64,000 bases of DNA. It comes from a virus. The stretch is from the IMG/VR virus record IMGVR_UViG_3300025395_000007; one strand, written 5' to 3'. The notes below the pieces were generated by a model, which worked only from the letters and a program-made list of their open reading frames with translations, was not told the DNA's origin and did not search any database. How positions within the stretch are numbered: the first letter of the stretch is position 1; each line of letters starts with the position of its first letter. Positions 1 through 32,078 of this stretch are shown here, in pieces. The position numbers and the translations under genes were made by a program.

Positions 1-700
1 TACCAATAATTGTTTCATATTCTTCGGGTGAACCTGAAAGGTGTGATATATGCATTGCAGGATCGTTTAAATTTAAATGAAAATGAATTATATGTCTAAT
101 ATTATCAAGTGGTGCATTTGGATCGCGATCACTTTCTCCCGATGCAAATCCTCTTGCTATTCCTTTAGAATGTGTAGCTGAAATAAATGCAGGTGAATGC
201 ATTTGACCATTTTCATCGATATGTTTTTCTGGGTCAAAACCAACACCTGAATATAAACTTACAGGAACTTGAATTCTATTATTATTTATTGAATTATCTA
301 AAGAGTTAACAGTAGGCTTATGTCTCTCTGCTAAATTATTATCCAATAAACCACCATTTAACAAATGACTTCCTAACCCAGTATATTTCGTAATAACTTT
401 AGCATCATCAGGATTTAAATTTTGTTTACCTGTTATTTTATCTGCTATTTCATCATCATGTTCTTCTGTTCTTGGTTTTTGTTTAGTCAAATGACTGTTA
501 TCGTTTGTTTCATGCCAATCATTTATATGACCGACAACTGGCTTTGCAGGTTGTGTATCTTCTTTTACATGTTTAAAATGTATCGGAGAAGGTGTAACAG
601 CTTTTGTTTTTGGAACTGAGATATGTTTGAAATGAATAACCGCTGGAATAGTTGGCGGTGCTTTTTTAATAGTTTTAATAAATTGTTTAAATTTCTTCAT
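1..700 (-). CDS. Alt/VIP2-like ADP-ribosyltransferase, probable internal head protein; 3' end runs off the window and the ORF is not in the track
   Basis: Manual translation from ATG at 700: MKKFKQFIK...KYTGLGSHLLNGG...LYSGVGFDP...PAFISATHS...HIIHFHL...SGSPEEYETII. This follows the R-S-E ART fold pattern; a late promoter TATAAATA lies at 725-732 (-). Confidence 0.7.
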   Translation of the reverse strand, partial: MKKFKQFIKTIKKAPPTIPAVIHFKHISVPKTKAVTPSPIHFKHVKEDTQPAKPVVGHINDWHETNDNSHLTKQKPRTEEHDDEIADKITGKQNLNPDDAKVITKYTGLGSHLLNGGLLDNNLAERHKPTVNSLDNSINNNRIQVPVSLYSGVGFDPEKHIDENGQMHSPAFISATHSKGIARGFASGESDRDPNAPLDNIRHIIHFHLNLNDPAMHISHLSGSPEEYETIIG

Positions 701-724: not shown

Positions 725-732
725 TATTTATA
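725..732 (-). promoter_or_regulatory. T4-type late promoter
   Basis: Exact TATAAATA on the minus strand, 25 nt upstream of the ATG at 700. Confidence 0.75.
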
Positions 733-750
733 TAAATGAGAAATGGGGTG

Positions 751-780
751 AAAAAAAAGACGAGCTTTTCAGCTCGTCTT
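751..780 (-). terminator. Rho-independent terminator
   Basis: AAGACGAGCT-GAAA-AGCTCGTCTT followed by a T run on the minus strand. Confidence 0.85.
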
Positions 781-890
781 AACTAACGAAAATACGGTTG
801 AGTGGAACCCCACCATTTGCTCTCAACTATTCCGTGTCTCCTCGACTCGTGCCTCTACGCATTGTAGCGTATACATATTTTCGTTTGATA
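781..890 (-). ncRNA. Putative structured ncRNA of unknown family (multi-stem junction, possible pseudoknot)
   Basis: 12-bp closing stem (AACGAAAATATG/CGTATTTTCGTT) with three internal hairpins, bounded by late-like CTAAATA (894-900) and a terminator; no ORF. Confidence 0.6.
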
Positions 891-905
891 GATTATTTAG
901 TCATC

Positions 906-1103
906 TCATAGAGATTTAAACTGAGATAAATCAACTTTTTTTAAAATAAATTTTGGAGTCCAACCATCAAATGCGCCTCCAAAGTTAAGGCGACGCAGCA
1001 TAGTTTTCGCATCATCTCTGGTCTTGAAAATCTCTATTGTTTGGTTGGTTGGTACTTCATGAACCTCGAATTTACCGTGTTTTTCAATGATTTTGTAATT
1101 CAT
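906..1103 (-). CDS. Hypothetical protein
   Basis: ORF in a tightly packed operon downstream of gp41. Confidence 0.7.
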   Translation of the reverse strand: MNYKIIEKHGKFEVHEVPTNQTIEIFKTRDDAKTMLRRLNFGGAFDGWTPKFILKKVDLSQFKSL

Positions 1104-11710: not shown

Positions 11711-11784
11711 TGGCTGGGGGACTAGGGCTCGAACCTAGATTCTGGGAGTCAAAGTCCCATGTACTACCATTATACGATCCCCCA
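11711..11784 (-). tRNA. tRNA-Gln(UUG)
   Basis: TGGGGGA...TCCCCCA-GCCA acceptor, anticodon loop CTTTGAC, GGTTCGAG T loop, encoded CCA. Confidence 0.95.
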
Positions 11785-30799: not shown

Positions 30800-31351
30800 A
30801 TGGCTTATTATGTATATAAAATTACAAATAAAATAAACAGTAAATGGTATATAGGTAAACGCAAGCATATGTCGCCGCTTAATGATTCTTACATGGGTAG
30901 TGGTAAACTAATTAAAGCTGCTATTGTCAAATATGGTGTAGATAATTTTATTAAAGAAATATTACAAATTTTTGATACTAATGATGAAGCCGCTAATTTA
31001 GAGAAAACATTAGTAACAAAACAAGCTATCAATACTAATATGTCTTATAACATGCATGAAGGTGGACACGGAGGATTTGCGCATTTAAATGATGGCAGTA
31101 AAGCACATAAAGAGCGATCAAAAAAAGGTGCAATGAACTCTACAGGTAAATTACATCCAAATTGGGGTAAATCTTCGTTTGCTAAAGATGATCCAAGAAC
31201 TATTGAAATGTCTAAAAAAGCAAATGAAAATAGGAAAAAAAATGGTCTTACTAATGAGCATAAAGAAAAAATAAAAATTGCTTCAATAAAAAGAGAAGAG
31301 CAAAGAAGATTAACAGGTTATTATCAGAAAATGTCGGCTGATAATTATTAG
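30800..31351 (+). mobile_element. Free-standing GIY-YIG (Seg-like) homing endonuclease
   Basis: YVYKITNKINSKWYIG, YMGSG, KYGVDNF.KEIL, YN...GG.GG; late promoter TATAAATA at 30773-30780. Confidence 0.9.
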
Positions 31352-31576
31352 AAAATATACAAAATAGCTATGGACTCGGCTCTCGGATGCCGACATCTCC
31401 ACCAATTTATACGGGGATGAAAGGGATCGACATGGTATGGAGTATTTTTTTAGACATCGTGTGCAAACTACGTTAACGTAAGATAAAATTATCTGCAAAC
31501 GATAATTCACTTCTTGAGATGCGCCTAGCGGCTTAATCTCTTGGGTATGAGTTCCACCTCGAAACAGAACGGGCTC
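31330..31576 (+). ncRNA. ssrA: Circularly permuted (two-piece) tmRNA
   Basis: Acceptor piece ends CATCTCCACCA (31404); 8-nt spacer; coding piece starts GGGGATG (31413, G3:U70) followed by GAAAGGGATCGAC; tag 31495-31536 reads ANDNSLLEMRLAA*; terminal hairpin GAGTTC...GGGCTC. The 5' boundary is approximate. Confidence 0.92.
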
Positions 31577-31615
31577 ACTTTATAACACACAAAACACACA
31601 CAAAGGAGACTACAA

Positions 31616-31903: not shown

Positions 31904-31980
31904 GGCCTCGTAGCTCAGCTGGACAGAGCAATGGATTTCTACTCCACAGGTCGGGCGTTCGAATCGCTCCGAGGTCGCCA
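31904..31980 (+). tRNA. tRNA-Arg(UCU)
   Basis: GGCCTCG/CGAGGTC acceptor, loop TTTCTAC, GTTCGAAT, CCA. Confidence 0.93.
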
Positions 31981-31986
31981 ATTTTT

Positions 31987-32078
31987 GGGGGTGGGTGTTG
32001 GTACACAGGGAGTCCTTATAAGGCTTTCAGCGGCAGATTACCGTTCTCGACAGGGTTCAAATCCTTGCACCCCTACCA
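31987..32078 (+). tRNA. Atypical tRNA with UAU anticodon (nominal Ile) and a long variable arm
   Basis: GGGGGTG/CACCCCT-ACCA acceptor; D arm GTGT-TGGT-ACAC; loop CTTATAA; V arm AGCGG/CCGTT; T arm CAGGG-TTCAAAT-CCTTG. Confidence 0.8.

Follow-up and report, generated by a model that had tools for sequence, protein, structure and literature searches.

The phi29 pRNA is a phage non-coding RNA of about 120-170 nt that is built around a helical junction and acts as a structural part rather than a message. It belongs to small phi29-like podoviruses, and its three-way junction is accompanied by complementary inter-molecular loops. T4 encodes two small stable RNAs of unknown function, species 1 and 2 (rnaC/rnaD), whose genes belong to the tRNA cluster and which are processed out of the precursor of that cluster. 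Y-like RNAs (YrlA), which act with Ro60, are modular structured non-coding RNAs that also occur in phages and work by protein binding. RNAs in which a complex invariant core is combined with strong covariation are usually riboswitches, ribozymes or ribonucleoprotein parts.

We analysed a 64,000-nt stretch of DNA, referred to here as the window, from IMG/VR virus record IMGVR_UViG_3300025395_000007. Positions 900-751, read on the minus strand, hold a late-promoter motif, a four-way junction of helices P1-P4 and a strong intrinsic terminator. A sequence-only reading had proposed that this region is a discrete phage ncRNA, and the promoter, the terminator and covariation in relatives bear out what appears to be a discrete structured RNA gene. 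On the evidence of the sequences, the best reading of the locus is a gene, present once per genome, whose product is a stable structured RNA that does not code for protein; its carriers are an uncultured clade of aquatic T4-like myophages.

The RNA resembles phi29 pRNA in being a phage-encoded, non-coding junction RNA of similar size. It differs in having a four-way junction, in being carried by T4-like myophages, and in showing no conserved loop-loop complementarity (palindromic P2 loops are found in a subset only), and the phi29-type pRNA model did not match it. Like rnaC/rnaD it would be a small stable RNA of a T4-type phage, but it has its own late promoter beside gp41, and a covariance model of the family finds nothing in T4. 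As to YrlA and Ro60, no YrlA or tRNA-like match was obtained, and the TROVE/Ro60 domain (PF05731) is absent from five RNA-bearing records, two of them complete, in a search in which control genomes were positive.

An Infernal scan against Rfam had been suggested as a check on the impression that the RNA is unlike tRNA, SRP RNA, any riboswitch or any ribozyme, and its outcome agrees with that impression. Rfam 15 at gathering thresholds gave no match on the element in the window or in 10 homologous loci, and at E up to 10 the matches were inconsistent and driven by the terminator. Models of self-cleaving ribozymes (hammerhead, twister, twister-sister, pistol, hatchet and HDV-like) likewise gave no match at E up to 10. 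ARAGORN placed three tRNAs elsewhere in the window and none at the element, and the matches to RF00005 were also elsewhere. Fremin, Bhatt and Kyrpides (2023; PMC10690425) reported 10,006 predicted structured RNAs from IMG/VR with covariation evidence. The main text of that paper mentions neither gp41, helicase, late promoters nor T4-like phages, and the present motif may be among its unnamed candidates, for which the paper supplies neither descriptions nor functions. Rfam, GenBank phage records and the full-text literature searched contain no description of the RNA, which appears to be a new RNA family of unplaced class.

Layout and transcription signals

The sequence-only reading had listed CTAAATA, P1, P2, P3, P4, their linkers and a terminator on the minus strand, and all of these are present. 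In the order in which the minus strand is read, the features are:

906-1103, minus strand: gene for c1, a 65-aa protein; upstream neighbour, usually but not always linked to the RNA
894-900, minus strand: late-promoter motif CTAAATA, recognised by sequence
874-885, minus strand: P1 5' strand, pairing with 785-796 (12 bp including one G-U; MFE fold)
872-873, minus strand: UA linker, preceding P2
856-871, minus strand: P2 hairpin, 871-867 with 860-856 (5 bp); loop variable
847-855, minus strand: J2/3 linker GAGGCACGA; its core G.GGCA..G is nearly invariant across the family
836-846, minus strand: P3 hairpin, 846-844 with 838-836 (3 bp in the window copy)
828-835, minus strand: J3/4 linker ACGGAAUA; GGAAUA and the first G of P4 are invariant
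797-827, minus strand: P4 arm, with P4a (822-827 with 797-802, 6 bp), a 6-nt bulge (816-821), P4b and a loop
813-815 with 803-805, minus strand: P4b, a 3-bp helix closing a 7-nt loop
806-812, minus strand: P4 loop UGGGGUU, 7 nt, invariant
785-796, minus strand: P1 3' strand, following P4 with no linker (MFE fold and covariation)
751-780, minus strand: intrinsic terminator, a 10-bp GC-rich hairpin (780-757) with a GAAA loop, and 8 T (758-751)
725-732, minus strand: second late promoter, a perfect TATAAATA, serving the next gene; it lies outside the RNA and marks it as a separate unit

The earlier account of P4 as a stem with a loop holds for the stem, but the "loop" is itself structured and comprises the bulge, P4b and the 7-nt loop. 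The MFE fold consists of the junction and a separate terminator (-44.9 kcal/mol, z = -3.6), and none of 200 shuffled sequences folds as well. Four bases separate P1 from the terminator hairpin in the window copy. The RNA is predicted to be ~135 nt long in the window, and the predicted transcripts of the family range from 123 to 171 nt, with a median of 144 nt. The region had also been described as free of ORFs and richer in GC than its flanks. Both statements are correct: the minus strand within 750-900 contains no ORF of 25 aa or more, and the GC content is 0.45 in the core, compared with 0.29 and 0.35 in the flanks and 0.37 in the whole window. A tiny ORF that begins in some sequences with an AUG at the P4 bulge was considered and rejected, as half of the family has ACG at that position.

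The fold has features in common with tRNA, namely a four-way junction, a strand of 2-3 nt between the first and second helices, and a last helix that passes into the closing helix without a linker. The differences are that P1 of the phage RNA has 12 bp, J2/3 and J3/4 are 8-9 nt long, P3 is variable and has no anticodon-type loop, and P4 is bulged and ends in a loop that is not a T-loop.

T4 late promoters have TATAAATA at about -13 to -6, and T4-type late transcription requires gp55, gp33 and the clamp. A promoter motif stands before P1 in 81 of 84 homologues (TATAAATA in 63, CTAAATA in 17 and CATAAATA in one), and one of the three homologues that lack it has GATAAATA. The distance from the end of the motif to the start of the model is 2-7 nt and in a minority of cases reaches up to 14 nt; the gap between CTAAATA and P1 in the window is about nine bases. 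The sixth nucleotide after the motif is A in 60 of the 81 sequences and the nucleotide before it is a pyrimidine in 68, which corresponds to Y-A at +5/+6. Applied to these loci, the spacing of T4 late promoters would put the 5' end at the foot of P1. By this analogy, we infer a late promoter whose TATAAATA-type motif lies about 6 nt before the start site, as in T4-type late units, and predict that transcription in the window begins at ~886-888, the base of P1.

Late motifs are scarce in the 64-kb window. TATAAATA occurs four times compared with 10.4 expected from dinucleotide shuffles, and CTAAATA five times compared with 20.6. This two- to four-fold depletion is consistent with selection against stray late promoters. 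Two of the nine motif copies flank the RNA gene.

A hairpin and a T-run follow P1 at every homologous locus, and in 47 of 80 homologues another late-promoter motif is found no more than 45 nt past the T-run. P1 and a separate terminator hairpin are kept in the MFE folds of all 83 homologous transcripts, 72 of which have at most two cross pairs, and the terminator is regarded as constitutive. With the motif in 81 of 84 homologues and a terminator in all, the proposal of a free-standing unit with its own late-type promoter and terminator is well supported. In many homologues (L008:2700-2745, L021, L007, L020) GGGAG is repeated in the linker between P1 and the terminator, ahead of a terminator stem that starts with GGGAGA. 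The repeat provides two registers for the same C-rich 3' half and is absent from the window copy.

Conservation and covariation among relatives

Eighty IMG/VR loci were fetched via gp41, and in 21 of these an nhmmer search placed the element downstream of that gene. A covariance model was built from the window and its nearest relative with a hand-drawn structure, and was then rebuilt from 49 hits. IMG/VR was also scanned by motif, independently of gp41, which yielded at least 119 stretches. From the two sources together the model has at least 86 hits, of which at least 84 are distinct, with E values from 1e-24 to 3e-4; all are on T4-like contigs from uncultured phages in IMG/VR.

Collecting homologues downstream of gp41 and examining their covariation had been named as a check on the original proposal. 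Homologues were found, and 28 of the 29 base pairs show compensatory double changes in the 84 distinct sequences, including all 12 pairs of P1, all five of P2 and all three modelled pairs of P3. P4a and P4b are 100% paired, and the outer pair of P4b is CG in 43 sequences, AU in 21, UA in 18 and GC in two. Watson-Crick or G-U combinations fill 93.1% of the pair cells over the 84 sequences; displacing the 3' partners by 1-3 columns lowers this to 31-51%. Shuffled data score 0.22 for covariation, whereas the alignment scores 0.775, and none of 500 shuffles attains any of five measures. The alignment was fitted to the covariance model, which favours the structure; smaller, earlier sets gave the same result. 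Considering the size of the effect and the agreement with those sets, there is little doubt that the sequences describe a conserved RNA rather than a chance fold, with strong purifying selection on the structure of the four-way junction. Many of the pairs are G-U and compatible only with the transcribed strand, and the structure was therefore assigned to the strand that bears the promoter and terminator. When the raw sequences were analysed with MAFFT and RNAalifold only P4 was recovered, because the variable stems were misaligned, and this alignment was replaced by the model-based one.

The invariant positions are all unpaired or helix-closing, and are located in the junction strands and the P4 loop. 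They form three blocks: G.GGCA..G in J2/3, GGAAUAG in J3/4 and the first base of P4, and GGUGGGGUUCC in P4b and its loop. Free variation is seen in the helix sequences, in both the P2 loop and the P3 loop, and in the extent of P3, which ranges from 3 to about 10 bp, and a marine-type subgroup has an additional hairpin inside the P4 bulge. GAGGCA, UGGGG and GGAAUA may resemble a stretch of 16S rRNA, a similarity that carries no weight in the interpretation. In about a third of the homologues the P2 loop contains a UGCA-centred palindrome (CUGCAG, GUGCAC, AUGCAU, UGCGCA), to which the window copy (861-866) is an exception. This palindrome may be a stem extension with a UGCA tetraloop, or a self-complementary kissing loop.

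A pseudoknot between GGAAU of J3/4 and GUUCC had been part of the original proposal, and comparison with the relatives lends it no support. The two sequences are complementary, but the proposed pairs show no compensatory changes, and three of the five never vary. The outermost pair would place G opposite G in six sequences in which the P4b pair at that position has switched from G-C to C-G, and in four further sequences the competing P4b pair has switched to A-U. Since P4b covaries where the outer pseudoknot pair breaks, the CC is assigned to P4b. A shorter tertiary contact of 3-4 bp, joining AAU with GUU, may be present.

An exposed loop together with a terminator that has a long U tail is common to many bacterial sRNAs. 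The present RNA has an invariant, exposed 7-nt loop and a terminator of this kind, and could thus be a base-pairing sRNA in which the G-rich P4 loop or the GGAAUA strand is the seed for C-rich sites in host or phage RNAs. The 64-kb window is not enriched in such sites, however: two complements of the loop were found compared with 4.7 expected, and 11 complements of the GGAAUAG strand compared with 7.3. The whole four-helix architecture is conserved, moreover, which goes beyond the needs of a seed, and we consider a base-pairing sRNA distinctly unlikely. An occurrence of GGAAUAG in the ribosome-binding site of the next gene (709-703) was set aside, as the frequency of this sequence in the window is within chance.

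Genomic context and neighbouring genes

The order of genes on the minus strand of the window is gp41 helicase (2951-1548), three small ORFs of which the last is c1, the RNA, and a gene (2-700 (-), ATG at 700) that encodes an ADP-ribosyltransferase (PF03496, E = 1.6e-8). The stop codon of c1 adjoins the promoter motif CTAAATA. Two genomes of 164-168 kb that are 99-100% complete each have one copy of the RNA gene. Its distance to the 3' end of gp41 is about 0.1-1.3 kb in every locus with enough flank, including both loci found via gp41 and loci found by motif. Freshwater-type loci read uvsX, gp41, (small ORFs), c1, RNA and then late genes. The marine-type subgroup has the RNA gene in the opposite orientation, convergent with c1 or gp41. 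Whichever way it points, the RNA gene always flanks the 3' end of gp41, which argues that it is not a 5' leader.

The RNA starts at the c1 stop codon in most loci, and its terminator is the first after the operon. These facts would suit a passive 3' end module whose main effect is to stabilise the uvsX-gp41-c1 operon at its end, or to insulate it there, with the late promoter being incidental. Such a module is nonetheless a very improbable explanation. A terminator hairpin alone would suffice for the purpose, with no need for invariant junction nucleotides, four covarying helices and a dedicated promoter, and in the convergent subgroup the RNA lies outside the transcript of that operon.

The strict three-block motif was found in 68 further stretches from public metagenomes, including marine ones. 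The late motif is present in 66 of these, and the other two are at contig ends. The same motif had no matches in one genome each of 185,579 prokaryote species. A loose version of the motif gave chance hits only in prokaryote genomes, and the single weak model hit in prokaryotes (L254) was rejected because many of its pairs are broken and it has no GGCA strand. The covariance model, with positive controls that worked, found no copy in nine GenBank T4-like genomes (Melnitz, S-RIM8, DLP_6, P-RSM3, T4, HTVC008M, Syn9, S-SM2 and marine virus AG-345-L05). Searches of GenBank phages by blastn, using the element with its flanks and two homologues, returned only terminator-like snippets, and the nearest cultured gp41 is just 63% identical. 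A cyanophage origin was rejected on the ground that psbA is absent from the two complete RNA-bearing genomes; this absence suggests that the carriers are probably phages of heterotrophs.

The Pelagibacter phage HTVC008M has a 230-nt unannotated gap directly after gp41 (103537-103766; L403:538-767), at the position that the RNA occupies in relatives, and the model has no hit there. Elsewhere in the window, 31278-31579 (+) encodes a permuted, alpha-type two-piece tmRNA of the phage (RF04321, 82 bits; alpha_tmRNA, 60 bits), and tRNA genes are found at 31904-31980, 31987-32078 and 11711-11784 (-).

The c1 protein has no match in Pfam, PHROG or PDB, either by sequence or as a significant fold, and tblastn of c1 against GenBank phages returned nothing. 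Its AlphaFold model (pLDDT 80) has three strands, a helix and a flexible, conserved tail (LNLGGGFDGWTP.FF), and comparison of the model with PDB revealed no recognisable RNA-binding fold. Strong c1 matches always adjoin the RNA, which is defined by motif at 89 of 106 and by model hit or inspection at the other strong c1 loci. Distant c1-like proteins without the conserved tail occur in loci without the RNA, and several lineages have the RNA without c1. An obligate c1-RNA particle was rejected, as c1 is missing from many RNA-bearing loci. The RNA gene of marine-type loci has a divergent neighbour (L103:5198-5506 (-) and relatives, cluster c12) for a stand-alone 103-aa protein similar to the NAD-binding Ia domain of NAD-dependent DNA ligase (PF22745, E = 9e-6).

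The products of the late genes that follow the RNA in freshwater-type loci include a HAD phosphatase, a 435-aa protein and DUF6267. The N-termini of these three and of the ADP-ribosyltransferase resemble T4 capsid-targeting sequences, M.(K/S)FK.(F/Y)(I/L), a pattern borne out in related loci. The capsid-targeting-like late genes are at:

window 2-700, minus strand
L137:2133-2777
L183:3192-4490
L137:4123-5358

Given that these genes lie just downstream, the RNA may have a virion-related role. It might be a substrate, cofactor or cargo of the neighbouring late enzymes (ADP-ribosyltransferase, HAD phosphatase, DUF6267), and be processed, ligated, attached or packaged by them. The freshwater-type RNA gene directly precedes these late genes, and late timing would be common to the RNA and the enzymes. 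Three observations count against a role of this kind, which we regard as quite improbable: Melnitz, S-RIM8 and P-RSM3 have DUF6267 in the same synteny but lack the RNA; the marine-type RNA points away from such genes; and no ribozyme model matches. A still more speculative proposal, to which we give very little credence, is that the RNA is made late, is bound or covalently attached by a capsid-targeted enzyme, is packed in the head, and enters the next host along with the DNA to act as an immediate-early effector. If true, it would be a virion-borne ncRNA in a T4-like phage.

A candidate role in trans

Terminating riboswitches of the four-way-junction classes, for example SAM-I and yybP-ykoY, have in common with the phage RNA that P1 closes a multi-helix junction, that unpaired junction nucleotides are invariant and peripheral stems vary, and that a terminator lies near P1. 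The compact junction, the invariant unpaired purines and the position of the terminator within 3-10 nt form the classic aptamer-plus-terminator layout. A small-molecule aptamer could be a free "sponge", or a sensor that tunes terminator read-through into the late genes or into gp41 antisense. Proteins that use or bind NAD are frequent nearby, among them the ADP-ribosyltransferase of the window and the Nlig-Ia domain protein of marine-type loci, and this would also agree with an aptamer. In transcriptional riboswitches, however, the aptamer and the terminator are mutually exclusive, whereas the 83 homologous transcripts fold both, and none has an alternative pairing of junction and terminator that could serve as an antiterminator. 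Transcriptional riboswitches are located in 5' leaders, whereas this RNA has its own promoter at P1, the next gene has a separate late promoter in 47 of 80 loci, and the convergent subgroup has no downstream gene. No riboswitch model of Rfam matches, even at E up to 10. On balance we judge the aptamer explanation unlikely.

The explanation that we favour, tentatively and with a little less than even confidence, is that the RNA acts in trans and binds a protein as a scaffold, cofactor or decoy. It is favoured because the conserved positions cluster on a tertiary surface and do not form a linear seed, and because layouts that act in cis fail: the convergent subgroup leaves nothing downstream to regulate, and the junction and the terminator fold independently. 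The RNA would be abundant late in infection; it would also form the 3' end of the gp41 operon transcript in the majority of lineages, those with co-oriented loci. Within the four-way junction P4 is stacked directly on P1. Ends that are buried in helices are typical of stable RNAs, and both ends of this RNA are predicted to be protected in this way, the 5' end in P1 and the 3' end in the terminator hairpin. The conserved tertiary surface would then bind a protein in trans, with no cis regulation of the downstream gene. Candidates for this protein are c1, the capsid-targeted enzymes whose genes lie immediately downstream, or a host factor that is itself conserved.

Some observations weigh against protein binding. 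No RNA-binding fold is recognisable in the c1 protein, many loci with the RNA lack c1, and there is no Ro60-like protein. Small-molecule aptamers and ribozymes have invariant junction nucleotides just as typically. That the RNA gene is always next to gp41, whichever way it is oriented, might reflect a local function. The probability that remains after all of these explanations belongs to something not yet conceived.

The RNA is phage-specific and single-copy, is preceded by a late-promoter motif, and is spread over T4-like myophages of marine and fresh waters, none of them cultured. The covariance model provides an annotation marker for a gene that is now invisible in such genomes. Knowing the partner would uncover a new RNA-based step of late T4-type infection, in assembly, takeover of the host or counter-defence, or else a new fold for ligand sensing.
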